From positions 9,710 to 29,835 of the forward strand of contig CAZYCQ010000042.1 in NCBI GenBank assembly GCA_964645535.1: a stretch of DNA of 20,126 nt, written 5' to 3'. The notes under the pieces are model-generated. The model was not told the DNA's origin. It searched no databases and saw only the letters and a program-made list of their open reading frames with translations. A program made the position numbers and the translations under genes. This document shows, piece by piece, positions 16,574 through 20,126 of the stretch (the stretch's first letter is position 1; each line of letters starts with the position of its first letter). The stretch comes from an uncultured archaeon. GTDB taxonomy: Archaea; Asgardarchaeota; Heimdallarchaeia; Heimdallarchaeales; Kariarchaeaceae.

Positions 16574-17554
16574 GTGGTAGAACAAATTGTCGACCTCAAC
16601 CTAGGTATGCCCCAAGACCTCAGAGAACGACTCGAAAAACAACATTACTACCTCGCAGGAAAACATAGCGGCGTCAAACTGTGCCACTGGACCAAAAAGG
16701 ACATCACTGGAGAAGGACAGTGCTATAAACACAAATTCTACGGAATAAAATCCGCTAACTGCATGCAGGTGTCCCCTGCACTCACTTGGTGCACTGAAAG
16801 ATGCCTCTTCTGCTGGAGAAGCGAAAGCTATGCAATGGGTGACGATATGTCAACCATCCAACATGACGCTCCTGACTGGCTCGTAAGAGAAATGATAAAA
16901 GGACAACAAAAACTACTCTCCGGATATGGAGGAAACCCTAAGGTCGACAAAAATGTATGGAAAGAGGCTCAACACCCAAAACATGTCGCTATCTCTCTCA
17001 GCGGAGAACCAACCCTCTATAAACACCTCGACGAATTCCTCGAAGTATGCCATGATCTAGGAATGACTACATTCCTCGTAACCAACGGAACAAACCCTCA
17101 AGTCCTAAAAAATCTAAAAAACCTCCCAACTCAGCTCTACCTAACCGTCGCTGGACCTACTCCCGAAATCCACTCCGCCATCACTAGACCATTCAACCCA
17201 AAAAAAGCATGGGAAAACCTAAACAAAACACTCGATGTAATGGCTGAAATCAATACCAGAAAAGTAATCAGAATGACCCTCGTAAAAGGAAAAAATATGA
17301 AACACCCTGAAAAATACGCACAAATGTTCTTCAGAGCTAAAGCACACTTCCTCGAAGCTAAAGGATTCGTATCTGTAGGCGACGCAAGAAATAACTACGG
17401 ATACGAAAGAATGCCTGACATAAACGATATCCTACAATTCTCCAAACAAATCGTCCAAAATTCCCCTCAACACCTCGAAATCATTGACCAATCTAAATCT
17501 TCCTGCGCTGTCCTAATGGCTCCTGAAGACTACCCATGGAGATACCTCGAATAA
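16574..17554 (+). CDS. taw1: 4-demethylwyosine synthase TYW1/Taw1 (radical SAM); start may be ATG 16607
   Basis: HSGVKLCHWTKK, CYKHKFYGI, CxxxCxxC (CTERCLFCWR), KHVAISLSGEPTLY, TFLVTNG, LEAKGFVSVG. No flavodoxin domain (archaeal form). Confidence 0.95.
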   Translation: MVEQIVDLNLGMPQDLRERLEKQHYYLAGKHSGVKLCHWTKKDITGEGQCYKHKFYGIKSANCMQVSPALTWCTERCLFCWRSESYAMGDDMSTIQHDAPDWLVREMIKGQQKLLSGYGGNPKVDKNVWKEAQHPKHVAISLSGEPTLYKHLDEFLEVCHDLGMTTFLVTNGTNPQVLKNLKNLPTQLYLTVAGPTPEIHSAITRPFNPKKAWENLNKTLDVMAEINTRKVIRMTLVKGKNMKHPEKYAQMFFRAKAHFLEAKGFVSVGDARNNYGYERMPDINDILQFSKQIVQNSPQHLEIIDQSKSSCAVLMAPEDYPWRYLE

Positions 17555-17652
17555 GAAAAAATAAAAAACGATACCAACCACCAAATTAAAATGCACCAAT
17601 GACTCTATTGAAAATATACATCACTTATCGTGATTATCGTGAGGTAGATAAC

Positions 17653-17919
17653 ATGTCCGAAGTCGATAAACAAGTTGCAGAAGCAATGGAAATCCTGACT
17701 CACATCGCTGAAGATTCTTCAGTACCTAGAAATATCAGAAAAGCAGCAACTAAATCCATTGAAATACTGCAAGACGAAACCATGGACCTAAACGTCCGAG
17801 CAATAAATGCAATCGACCTGCTCGATGAATCAACCGCTGACCCCAACTGCCCATACCACGCAAGAACTATGCTCTGGCAAGCTATAACCAGACTCGAACT
17901 ACCACCACAAGCAGATTGA
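17653..17919 (+). CDS. UPF0147 family protein
   Basis: IAEDSSVPRNIRKAA, AIDLLDE, DPNCPYHARTMLWQAITRLE. Start re-called at ATG 17653 (GAGGT SD at 17641-17645). Confidence 0.92.
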   Translation: MSEVDKQVAEAMEILTHIAEDSSVPRNIRKAATKSIEILQDETMDLNVRAINAIDLLDESTADPNCPYHARTMLWQAITRLELPPQAD

Positions 17920-17976
17920 AAAGACCTAAAGAAAAATTAATTACCCAATAATCCAATACTAAAAATCAGACAAAAA

Positions 17977-18087
17977 GGCGAGGTGCCGGAGTGGTTAACG
18001 GGGCGGTCTCGAAAACTTAACACTGAGCTGTTAAGTCTTGAAAACCGCTGAGCTATGCTCGCATGGGTTCGAATCCCATCCTCGTCA
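17977..18087 (+). tRNA. tRNA-Ser(CGA) with 29-nt intron at 37/38 (18014..18042); CCA not encoded
   Basis: Acceptor GGCGAGG/CCTCGTC, D arm CCG-GAGTGGTTAA-CGG, anticodon stem GCGGT/ACCGC with loop CT-CGA-A^A, variable arm GAGC-TAT-GCTC, T arm ATGGG-TTCGAAT-CCCAT. The intron hairpin ACTTAACA/TGTTAAGT sits in BHB-like geometry. Confidence 0.92.
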
Positions 18088-18168
18088 TTTACATTTCAAT
18101 GGATTTCTGGAAGCTATTGGTTGATTTTTCCTTCCTTCAATGGTCTAATGTTTAGGTGTAAATTTAGT

Positions 18169-18909
18169 TTATTCGTGTGATCCTTCTCCGAGCACGTATT
18201 TGGTCTCCTTTTCGTCAAGAACAGAAAATACGGCTCTTCGATCGATTTTGATGGTTCCCACACCGTTTTTTGCAAGATTTGTTCTGAGTGAATTGACGAT
18301 TTTGCTGTGGAAGTTTCTGTAGACGAGCATTGCAGGGAATAATGCGGGGGAGATCATGATGAGTACCACTGCGGTCAGGATTGCATAGAGGATGAGGATT
18401 GTTATGGGGTCTGCAACGATGTTCCTTACTAGTAATTCCCTTCTGATGAGGTTGTATCCTGTTATCATTCCTGTAATTACGAGGAAATTGTTGATATAAT
18501 CCAAAATGTCGATTGATGCAATTTGGAATGTTCCGTCATAGTTGGCTACTAGCACTCTTGAATCGTTGGTGACGAATCGGATTGGTTGGTATAGGCCAAC
18601 AATGAGGAGAGCAATTACAGTGGCTGCAATGATTTCAAGGATAATCATGAGGGTATCTTCTGGGCGATACACAGTCAGGAGGTAATAGAGGATCAGATAG
18701 AAAATGGAGATGAAGCTGACGATGAACCTCCATGAGAACCCTAACACCCTGAAAATGCTTCTGTAATCACTGTCGGGTATATTCAGTTGCAGGTATGCAT
18801 TCTTGAGATCTTCAGAGTAGAGGGCCTTTGCAAGTATTCCAGATAGTTGCAGCAAATCTTCCTTGTCATCTTTTGCTGCCTTGACTGGCCGGACGAAGAA
18901 GATTTCCAT
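18169..18909 (-). CDS. Hypothetical membrane protein (about 4 TM)
   Basis: 246-aa ORF with four hydrophobic segments, convergent on the tRNA. Confidence 0.7.
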   Translation of the reverse strand: MEIFFVRPVKAAKDDKEDLLQLSGILAKALYSEDLKNAYLQLNIPDSDYRSIFRVLGFSWRFIVSFISIFYLILYYLLTVYRPEDTLMIILEIIAATVIALLIVGLYQPIRFVTNDSRVLVANYDGTFQIASIDILDYINNFLVITGMITGYNLIRRELLVRNIVADPITILILYAILTAVVLIMISPALFPAMLVYRNFHSKIVNSLRTNLAKNGVGTIKIDRRAVFSVLDEKETKYVLGEGSHE

Positions 18910-19181
18910 ATTATAATTTCAAATATGATTTTGAAGTGGAGTCTCTCATATCGTCGGACAACTCTGCTTGTTTCCAGTTTCAATCTCTAATGGGTAATCT
19001 GAACAATTGCAACTATCTCGCTGTTGTATATGGGCACATATGGTTGTCAACATGGATGGTCACCTGTGATTTCCTCCACTTTCTTGTTCCCTTGTTTCTG
19101 AAGCAGATTTTATATTCATCAACTTCCTATGGAACGCAATTGCAATTCAAATTCTACCGGAGGGTCTTGGTTCCGAAAGGG

Positions 19182-20126
19182 ATGTTTTCCGTCAGTCTCC
19201 ACCCCGAGGATCTGGAGGCGATCAATGGCGTGGTAGCCTATCTGCGCATCCTGAATGTACCCATGAAACCGGAAAAGCCTGCCATTTTGTCACGCGTAAA
19301 TCCGACAACCATTCAGATTCGAGACCCCTTTTTCGGCATCATTGCCAAGGAGATGGATGGACAGTTCCGCATTGTCGATGTGGATGTCAAGATTGAACTG
19401 GACTTCTTTCCCTATTCGCTGTTTGCGCTGGAACATCTGAAGGAACTCGGTTTCAGGTGCACACGTATCGGAACCGTCGACCAGATTCCCTCCTTCAGAT
19501 GCATGCATCTTCGATCCCTCTACATCTCTGTCGAAGACGGTCACTTTCTTGCCCTTTCTCAGTTGCATCAACTTACCCAACTGGAACATCTCTTCCTGTA
19601 TATCCATTCTCCCACCCTTCAGTTGGACAGCTTCCCTCTCCTGAAAAGCCTAGGAATCAGGACTTCGATGCTCCGCATTGATGAATCCTTTCCCGATTGG
19701 ATACAGAACCTCAGTATCCAAGGTGCGGATGTCCATTTCATCACTAAGCGGGAAGCCATCATCTATCTCCGGCTCACCGGTTGCAGAATCCATAATGTCC
19801 ACTTCCCGGACACATTGCCGAACCTGAAACGACTCTCCCTGATCTCATCGCAGTTCATGACCTGCCATTCACATGGCATCGAAGACCTGAAGCAGCTTGT
19901 GTTTCTTGAACTCGATGATGTCAATATCGATGAAATCAATCTCCGAGACACTCCGTTGATGTTCATCATCCTCAAAAACCTCAATTGGAAATACCTGCCC
20001 AAAATCCCCGAATACCTTTTCGCTCTTCACCTCATCTCACTTCCCAACATGACCATCCCCTCTTGGGTCAAAAAACATGTCACCTCATCAATGGCTCTGC
20101 AGGTCATTGACTGCAAATTCGAATGA
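19182..20126 (+). CDS. Leucine-rich-repeat-like protein (start probably ATG 19182, not 18936)
   Basis: Repeated LxxLxL units (LTQLEHLFL, LLKSLGI, IQNLSI, LPNLKRLSL, LKQLVFLEL, LFALHL). AAGGG precedes ATG 19182, and C-rich third codon positions begin there. Confidence 0.7.
   Translation: MFSVSLHPEDLEAINGVVAYLRILNVPMKPEKPAILSRVNPTTIQIRDPFFGIIAKEMDGQFRIVDVDVKIELDFFPYSLFALEHLKELGFRCTRIGTVDQIPSFRCMHLRSLYISVEDGHFLALSQLHQLTQLEHLFLYIHSPTLQLDSFPLLKSLGIRTSMLRIDESFPDWIQNLSIQGADVHFITKREAIIYLRLTGCRIHNVHFPDTLPNLKRLSLISSQFMTCHSHGIEDLKQLVFLELDDVNIDEINLRDTPLMFIILKNLNWKYLPKIPEYLFALHLISLPNMTIPSWVKKHVTSSMALQVIDCKFE

Follow-up and report, generated by a model that had tools for sequence, protein, structure and literature searches.

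A tRNA-Ser(CGA) intron in an Asgard archaeon repeats the adjoining anticodon arm and may have arisen by local duplication

Introduction

Intron gain by tandem genomic duplication has been proposed for spliceosomal introns. In archaeal tRNA genes, canonical hBHBh' introns (Marck and Grosjean, 2003, as cited in 10.64898/2026.10.13.758758 and PMC4090602) are placed at position 37/38, are cut in their bulges, have both flanking helices h and h' and are removed by EndA and RtcB. Relaxed BHB substrates, such as the classes HBh' and hBH, miss one flanking helix or bulge and are handled in the TACK and Asgard archaea by an (alpha-beta)2 EndA with the Crenarchaea-specific L1 loop (PMC5829648). According to Kaneta et al. 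(2018, PMC5829648), Asgard archaea have this type of EndA, in which the L1 loop confers broad substrate specificity, and such enzymes are reported to cleave relaxed motifs.

Several routes by which tRNA introns or their host genes change have been described. In the Thermoproteales, near-identical introns are found in different tRNA genes, a DNA-level gain of BHB introns by transposition after species divergence (Fujishima et al., 2010, as presented in PMC4090602). In Lachancea, tRNA-Leu(CAG) came from tRNA-Leu(UAG) by U34C, an anticodon switch in an intron-containing gene (PMC4090602). The review by Yoshihisa that presents both the Thermoproteales transposition and the yeast anticodon switching does not describe duplication-born BHB introns (PMC4090602). 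Direct repeats near intron borders have been read as insertion footprints, in a survey that included four archaeal introns only and took repeats anywhere within ±40 bp (PMC11782384). According to a recent preprint, Asgard archaea have unusually many tRNA introns, with repeated and recent gains; local duplication was not tested there, and the route of intron arrival was explicitly left open (10.64898/2026.10.13.758758).

Here we describe a tRNA-Ser(CGA) gene of an uncultured Asgard archaeon with a 29-nt intron. As seen for the canonical hBHBh' class, the intron is at 37/38 and has two 3-nt bulges and both h and h', and both EndA and RtcB are encoded in the genome. It differs from that class in its central helix, where 2/4 positions pair and the two strands are near-identical and not complementary. 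Like the hosts of relaxed substrates (PMC5829648), the archaeon has two EndA paralogues, but whereas HBh' and hBH miss one flanking helix or bulge, the Ser(CGA) intron has all of these and a weak central helix. With the Thermoproteales it would share a DNA-level gain after species divergence; the Ser(CGA) intron, however, is present once only and resembles the exons on either side of it. With Lachancea it has in common that an anticodon-related segment of the intron reflects a wobble base unlike that of the exon. As for the repeats in PMC11782384, a direct repeat runs across both borders with a spacing equal to the intron length, but in that survey the repeat was not linked to BHB symmetry.

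Results

The tRNA-Ser(CGA) gene and its surroundings

The window, by which we mean the whole stretch of 20,126 nt that was analysed, contains one tRNA gene, on the plus strand at 17977–18087. It belongs to a genome of 3.62 Mb (176 contigs, 41% GC), called G000 here, and related genomes are numbered G001, G002 and so on. The Rfam tRNA model RF00005 covers 17977–18087 end to end (46.4 bits), the anticodon loop carrying an insertion of 31 nt, and ARAGORN with introns allowed reports tRNA-Ser(CGA) with an intron of 29 nt. Default ARAGORN, which runs without introns, does not call the gene at 17977–18087. The gene is made up as follows:

17977–18087, plus strand: tRNA-Ser(CGA) gene, pre-tRNA of 111 nt (Rfam RF00005; ARAGORN with introns)
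17977–18013, plus strand: 5' exon, ending at A37 in the canonical placement (cloverleaf; the only cut with both flanking helices is after 18013)
18014–18042, plus strand: 29-nt intron at the canonical 37/38 position (ARAGORN cloverleaf and cut enumeration)
18043–18087, plus strand: 3' exon, starting at A38 (ARAGORN cloverleaf and cut enumeration)

The tRNA is of class II with a long variable arm (GAGC-TAT-GCTC), a D stem of 3 bp, the anticodon stem GCGGT/ACCGC, the loop CT-CGA-AA, a G2-U71 pair and A as discriminator; CCA is not encoded. Because of the repeat described below, the placement of the intron slides across 18010–18016 with the CGA product unchanged.

Just upstream of the tRNA (16574–17919) lie a Taw1-like radical-SAM protein and a UPF0147 protein, in an arrangement that is conserved across the family. 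The neighbouring features are:

16574–17554: Taw1-like radical-SAM protein carrying a wyosine-formation domain, just upstream of the tRNA
17599–17919: UPF0147 protein, immediately upstream of the tRNA
18169–18909, minus strand: ORF of 246 aa without a Pfam match, downstream of the tRNA
18936–20126, plus strand: leucine-rich-repeat protein, downstream of the tRNA

Synteny with the relatives ends just upstream of the tRNA, where the blastn alignment stops near 17920, and nothing in the window downstream of the tRNA (18088–20126) matches them. The tRNA-Ser(CGA) gene may mark a rearrangement or integration boundary.

A direct repeat across both intron borders

The segments GTCTCGAAAAC (18006–18016) and GTCTTGAAAAC (18035–18045) are direct repeats with an offset of 29 nt, exactly the length of the intron, and their sole difference is at the wobble position, C at 18010 against T at 18039. 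The earlier note had reported two such 11-mers that differ at position 34 alone, and its coordinates and sequence are borne out. An in-register match of at least 10/11 was reached by 3 of 200,000 shuffles of the intron (p ≈ 1.5e-5), and by 59 of 200,000 when the two bases forced by the BHB, C(-6) and G(-3), were kept fixed. None of the other offsets (51 tried at this place) gives a boundary repeat as good as 29. The 11-mer repeat is statistically real, beyond chance.

With a single 4-nt gap the repeat becomes longer and reaches into the variable arm. It then spans 24 columns, in which 18 of the 20 aligned bases are identical: GTCTCGAAAAC-TTAA-CACTGAGCT (18006–18029) aligns with GTCTTGAAAAC-CGCTGAGCT (18035–18054), and the gapped self-alignment score was met by one of 200 intron shuffles, the second duplicated segment (after the gap) making a small contribution to it. 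The 7-mer CTGAGCT is found both as the intron hairpin loop and at the start of the variable arm and has no pairing role. It was shared with exon 2 in 0.6–1.4% of the shuffles of the 18 nt between the repeats (p ≈ 0.006–0.014). The two putative duplicates are:

18006–18029, plus strand: duplicate copy A, GTCTCGAAAAC-[TTAA]-CACTGAGCT (gapped self-alignment; p of CTGAGCT)
18035–18054, plus strand: duplicate copy B, GTCTTGAAAAC-CGCTGAGCT (repeat match, gapped alignment and shuffles)

Copy A consists of G30-A37 of the working anticodon arm followed by a degenerate copy of positions 38 to ~47, which is now the 5' part of the intron. The first 8 nt of copy B are the 3' end of the intron and form a pseudo anticodon loop whose wobble base, at 18039, is T, while its remainder is the working 3' strand of the anticodon stem with the start of the variable arm. 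The collinear similarity of the 5' exon end plus intron start to the intron end plus 3' exon start thereby exceeds what the splicing motif requires. Two pieces are not accounted for by a simple tandem duplication, GTTAA (the 5 nt between the copies) and the TTAA insertion at 18017–18020, and together they make up the rest of the intron hairpin.

Splicing motif and endonuclease

All 29-nt excisions were enumerated for BHB geometry. A 5' cut at 18005–18009 leaves GCGGT-CT-TGA-AA-ACCGC and a 5' cut at 18010–18016 leaves the CGA product, in agreement with the two excision products that had been proposed earlier. The cut after 18013 (37/38) alone has h of at least 5 bp, h' of 8 bp and AAA/AAA bulges. 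As it is the only one with both flanking helices, the earlier view that BHB geometry favours 37/38, and thus CGA, holds. In this register the two 3-nt bulges are AAA 18012–18014 and AAA 18041–18043, each cut after the second base. The predicted elements are:

18015–18036, plus strand: intron helix h', 18015–18022 with 18029–18036, 8 bp, loop CTGAGC at 18023–18028 (RNAfold)
18008–18014, plus strand: 5' half of the relaxed BHB, C32-U33-C34-G35 (18008–18011) and bulge A36-A37-a (18012–18014), cut after 18013
18037–18043, plus strand: 3' half of the relaxed BHB, CUUG (18037–18040) and bulge a-a-A38 (18041–18043), cut after 18042

The h' pairs nearest the bulges, A18015-T18036 and C18016-G18035, correspond to the tRNA pairs 39-31 and 40-30 formed across the two copies. 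The central helix is CUCG/CUUG (C-G, U.U, C.U, G-C), where the CUUG of 18037–18040 pairs with positions 32–35 through C-G and G-C only. This gives 2/4 pairs, with the two mismatches that had already been pointed out, instead of the four base pairs of a canonical central helix. The scoring used in the preprint (10.64898/2026.10.13.758758) needs at least 3/4 central pairs, and by it this intron is not even relaxed or BHB-like.

RNAfold gives an MFE of -15.5 kcal/mol (z = -4.3), using a shifted helix 18009–18012/18038–18041. In this shifted register (UCGA/UUGA) 4/4 central positions pair, the flanking helices are not adjacent and 2x1 internal loops take the place of the bulges. Since every base next to the cuts is A, the CGA product does not differ between the two registers, and any cut pair inside GAAAAC yields the same CGA tRNA. 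Efficient splicing is an assumption, since the central helix has 2/4 pairs and the MFE register is not a textbook BHB. With the C of an exact copy at 18039, the canonical register has -9.0 kcal/mol and the competing shifted one -17.6 kcal/mol; with the present T the values are -9.9 and -15.5 kcal/mol. That this C-to-T change was selected would be speculation from a small energy shift alone.

Two EndA paralogue ORFs with N- and C-terminal domains (PF01974/PF02778) were identified in the genome, at L054:1192–1788 and L055:1360–1998. One resembles most closely the catalytic alpha subunits of the heterotetrameric enzymes of Aeropyrum and Pyrobaculum, while the other is a divergent paralogue. RtcB is also encoded (560 bits). 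By analogy with the enzymes reported to cut relaxed motifs, the encoded (alpha-beta)2-type EndA plausibly cuts the predicted relaxed BHB at 37/38. The AAA bulges are not a general preference of the enzyme, as AA at -2/-1 was seen in 0/10 non-Ser introns of the family (read by eye).

Related Ser(CGA) genes

A BLAST search with the pre-tRNA against 40 relatives was insensitive and matched 3' halves only. Ser tRNA genes were therefore collected with a covariance model made from the gene, first in the 40 relatives and afterwards across 83 genomes of the class. A single-sequence model with explicit structure was used because MAFFT misaligned the anticodon arm of Ser(CGA) and Ser(UGA). The genes for the Taw1-like radical-SAM protein and the UPF0147 protein are found upstream of Ser(CGA) in G002, G003, G004, G005 and G008, and with the same upstream genes these Ser(CGA) loci are orthologous to that of the window.

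The closest relative is G002, with 91–96% aa identity in the flanking genes, and its syntenic Ser(CGA) is intronless. The same is seen for G004 and G005, while the syntenic gene of G003 has an intron in the T loop only and none at 37/38. In G008 the Ser(CGA) intron is 19 nt and ends AGAG-CT, and in G001 and G010 the introns are 12 and 15 nt and end in the canonical complement CGAG. From these intron states, the 29-nt intron with the CTTG copy is specific to G000. Being missing at the syntenic loci it may be a lineage-specific gain in G000, or may have been lost in the lineages of G002, G004, G005 and G003. Since synteny identifies the locus as the orthologous Ser(CGA) of the relatives, C34 of the exon would be ancestral and the intron copy the one that changed, unlike in Lachancea. 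Pattern scans of public metagenome and genome collections found no allele of the gene, with or without the intron.

Two further features of these loci were observed. The insert in the T loop of the G003 gene (same genus; L035:1501–1612, which is G003:C8:55490–55601) is ~27 nt long, GGGGGTTCAAA-atccaagaattgaacaccttggatgaa-ATTCCCCC. The D, variable and T arms are strongly divergent among the syntenic Ser(CGA) genes of the genus (the window, L034, L035 and L008), with flanking proteins that are 85–96% identical at those loci; G2-U71 and the discriminator A are kept in all. Judged from this comparison, the body of Ser(CGA) at the syntenic locus appears to evolve unusually fast for a tRNA.

Copies of exon sequence in other introns

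Introns were tested for copies of adjacent exon sequence by a boundary-repeat scan and by gapped alignment against intron shuffles. Copies at p ≤ 0.01 were found in 6 of ~61 introns, where ~0.6 would be expected by chance:

G000 Ser(CGA): repeat of 10/11, 24 columns with one gap (p ≤ 0.01)
G000 Ser(UGA): CTTGAAAA twice, 27 nt apart (p ≤ 0.01)
G001 Ser(GGA): CTGGAAAG twice, 12 nt apart (p ≤ 0.01)
G004 Ser(UGA): TGGTCTTGAACACCAG and TGGTCATGAAAACCAG, 14/16, both stem halves copied (p ≤ 0.01)
G013 Ser(GCU): 19/21 at offset 27 (p ≤ 0.01)
G009 Leu(UAG): the intron copies variable-arm and T-arm sequence (p ≤ 0.01)

The Ser(UGA) gene of G000 (C29:3019–3131; L004:120–232, minus strand) carries an intron of 27 nt at 37/38. 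The 3' end of this intron, CTTGAA, is a repeat of the gene's own anticodon loop, and the central helix CUUG/CUUG has 2/4 pairs. The repeat is limited to 8 nt and the interior of the intron has no further match to its own exon 2. Synteny around this gene was not established by blastn. The genome also has Ser(GGA) and Ser(GCU) genes. For the Ser(UGA) gene of G004, the predicted fold builds h' from the duplicated stem halves.

Some details of these genes are worth recording. The G004 Ser(UGA) gene (L053, G004:C136:4916–5126, minus strand) has two introns, of which one of ~29 nt interrupts the D arm and the one in the anticodon loop holds a near-complete second anticodon stem-loop, with copies 36 nt apart. 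In G009 Leu(UAG) (L052, G009:C436:98–307, minus strand), the intron sequence TTAGGAAATTCGATGGATCGAA corresponds to TTAGG-AATTCGTGGGTTCGAA in the exon, and 0/200 shuffles scored as high; TTAGGA is present in both the anticodon loop and the variable arm, as would suit a templated insertion primed by microhomology. The 12-nt introns of G001, ATTTAGCGAGAG in Ser(CGA) and AGTTAGCTGGAA in Ser(GGA) (L008 and L036), are alike at 8/12 positions. This hints that the introns of Ser isoacceptors within one genome may be related or homogenised.

Non-Ser introns of the family were sampled by length only from 17 long Rfam tRNA matches, among the matches listed for the family (mostly intronless), and none of the 16 introns has a significant exon copy. 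Other families of the class contributed another 15 Ser introns and a Leu intron, and none of these was significant against shuffles either. Exon copying as a general property of Asgard Ser introns had been considered, as there are several anticodon-arm look-alikes by eye, but none is significant, and the idea was dropped because no further intron of the class was significant against shuffles. It should be noted that dominant exon-exon matches bring the shuffle test to saturation (200/200), so that it detects strong repeats only. With 31 other introns of the family and class, Ser and non-Ser, lacking a significant exon copy, duplication is at best a minority route. The exon-copy signal is real but confined to a few genes, mostly tRNA-Ser genes in the family of the window.

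Discussion

Origin of the intron by local duplication

We consider it somewhat probable that tRNA-Ser(CGA) is a normal single-product gene with a young 29-nt intron that was created by local duplication, and this is the best supported of the explanations considered. Birth by duplication was among the origins suggested in the earlier note, and it has gained from the 24-column repeat, the shared CTGAGCT (p ≈ 0.006–0.014), the lineage-specific occurrence at a syntenic locus and the five other introns with exon copies. Recombination between isoacceptors, suggested alongside it, is not needed since the C/T difference is a single transition.

The duplication would have been local and roughly tandem, ~20–25 nt long, and would have extended from G30, in the anticodon stem, to the beginning of the variable arm. 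What then became intervening sequence would be the first copy's 3' part together with the 5' part of the second. Two Ser loops, C32-U33-N34-G35-A36-A37-A38, would face each other with C32-G and G35-C as closing pairs and with two AAA bulges, and the stem halves, now present twice, would supply the flanking helices (pairs 31-39 and 30-40), giving a two-fold-symmetric proto-BHB. Later on, the intron hairpin would have been lengthened by the TTAA insertion and a G-to-A change, and the pseudo-loop would have come to read UGA through a C-to-T change within the intron copy. A duplication of this kind could be tolerated because the Ser anticodon loop is quasi self-complementary. It could be spliceable at once owing to the two-fold symmetry of the BHB motif: the duplicate supplies flanking helices, bulges and two closing pairs, so a broad-specificity (alpha-beta)2 EndA could act on it directly.

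When two copies face each other, the central helix is made of positions 32–35 against their own copy, and its pairing requires that the combinations N32-N35 and U33-N34 form pairs. In Ser(NGA) loops, C32 and G35 provide the closing pairs at no further cost, and the two AAA bulges come from A36-A37-A38. With G34 all four central positions pair by wobble, as seen for G001 Ser(GGA), while U34 or C34 leaves two pyrimidine mismatches in the middle, as seen for G000. Related genes have CUUG, CAUG/CUAG or CAAG/CGAG at the 3' site of the intron. Such a series fits a stepwise maturation, and would equally fit decay in the opposite direction. As a tentative generalisation, which we hold with less confidence than the reading of the single gene, a duplicated or templated quasi-palindromic anticodon arm may be a way in which archaeal BHB introns arise de novo, with CUNG maturing to CNAG by later point changes.

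Alternative explanations

It is possible, though unlikely, that there was no duplication and that the repeat reflects constraint and composition, with a symmetric BHB tolerated or preferred by the EndA of the lineage for Ser pre-tRNAs. Pairing with G35 and C32 dictates C(-6) and G(-3), so that 2/11 matches follow from the BHB, and the intron is A/T-rich. Both Ser introns of G000 end CTTGAA, AA at -2/-1 mirrors A36-A37 in 7 of ~18 Ser introns of the class, and the repeated CTGG of G001 Ser(GGA) is the wobble-complement of itself. Yet the repeat is hardly ever reached by shuffles when the forced bases are fixed (59/200,000), and the copied inner bases (UU) give mismatches that selection for a BHB would remove; same-genus orthologues carry the complementary CGAG or CAAG. 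The repeats of G004 and G013 moreover reach far beyond the BHB core, and CTGAGCT is located in a hairpin loop where it has no pairing role.

The layout of a direct repeat, a 6-bp stem with a 6-nt loop and a second direct repeat could also bring to mind a mobile hairpin module that was inserted into the anticodon loop with a target-site duplication of 8–16 bp. Ser(CGA) has an 11-bp repeat around the 18-nt TTAACA-CTGAGC-TGTTAA, and Ser(UGA) has an 8-bp repeat around 19 nt. We find this improbable. Neither hairpin recurs at up to 2 mismatches in the 3.6-Mb genome, apart from one unrelated 2-mismatch match to the UGA hairpin, whose matches at 3 mismatches are at chance level; blastn-short likewise finds no other copy of the Ser(CGA) intron in the genome. 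This lack of recurrence argues against a mobile module. The two hairpins are also unrelated in sequence, and the Ser(CGA) loop matches the adjacent exon, as predicted by local copying and unlike a foreign insert. No mobile-element association is reported for Asgard tRNA intron gains in the preprint (10.64898/2026.10.13.758758).

Acquisition of the intron, or of its 3' end, from the Ser(UGA) paralogue by gene conversion or isoacceptor recombination would explain the TTGA. In the same genome, the mature Ser(UGA) anticodon arm has exactly the sequence of copy B extended by the following base, GTCTTGAAAACC. Both Ser introns of G000 start AA..TT and end CTTGAA, and the 12-nt Ser(CGA) and Ser(GGA) introns of G001 resemble each other as well. 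We nevertheless regard this origin as very improbable. The intron interiors and the anticodon stems differ (GCGGT vs. CTGGT), with identity beyond the ends at chance level, and one C-to-T transition suffices. The interior match is to the variable arm of Ser(CGA) itself and not to the Ser(UGA) gene.

We give almost no credence to a dual-anticodon gene that yields Ser(CGA) or Ser(UGA) by alternative splicing or by precise DNA deletion between the repeats, as the earlier note had raised: a 29-nt excision with cuts 5' of position 34 (junction ...GGUCU/UGAAAACC) would give a perfect Ser(UGA) anticodon arm, and in-register direct repeats could in principle allow slippage deletion with either outcome, but the cut pairs at 18005–18009 have at most 3/4 central pairs and no flanking helices, the repeat is 4 nt on the 5' side of the mismatch against 6 nt on the 3' side, and the genome has a dedicated, intron-containing tRNA-Ser(UGA) at G000:C29:3019–3131 besides its GGA and GCU genes, while the related Ser(CGA) introns end CGAG or AGAG or are absent, and do not keep the copy. 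The same note had seen no good BHB for the UGA route, which is what we find, no UGA cut pair having any flanking helix; two of the three observations that it named as refuting its reading, a separate Ser(UGA) gene and orthologous introns that do not keep the copy, are what the genome and the orthologues show. The Ser(CGA) gene is thus expected to be an ordinary single-anticodon gene, which from its sequence would give one product with the junction ...CUCGAA/AACCGC. For annotation this means that strict BHB classifiers reject introns of this type, and that the pseudo-anticodon loop is not to be taken for a second anticodon.

Implications

The CUUG, CUAG/CAUG and CGAG/CAAG variants form a natural substrate series for the central-helix pairing needs of the Asgard endonuclease. 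If birth from a duplicated anticodon arm is true, some intron gains, at least a minority, would have a simple mechanism that can be tested, and there would be a concrete answer to how tRNA introns arrive in Asgard archaea and why the signature concentrates in tRNA-Ser.
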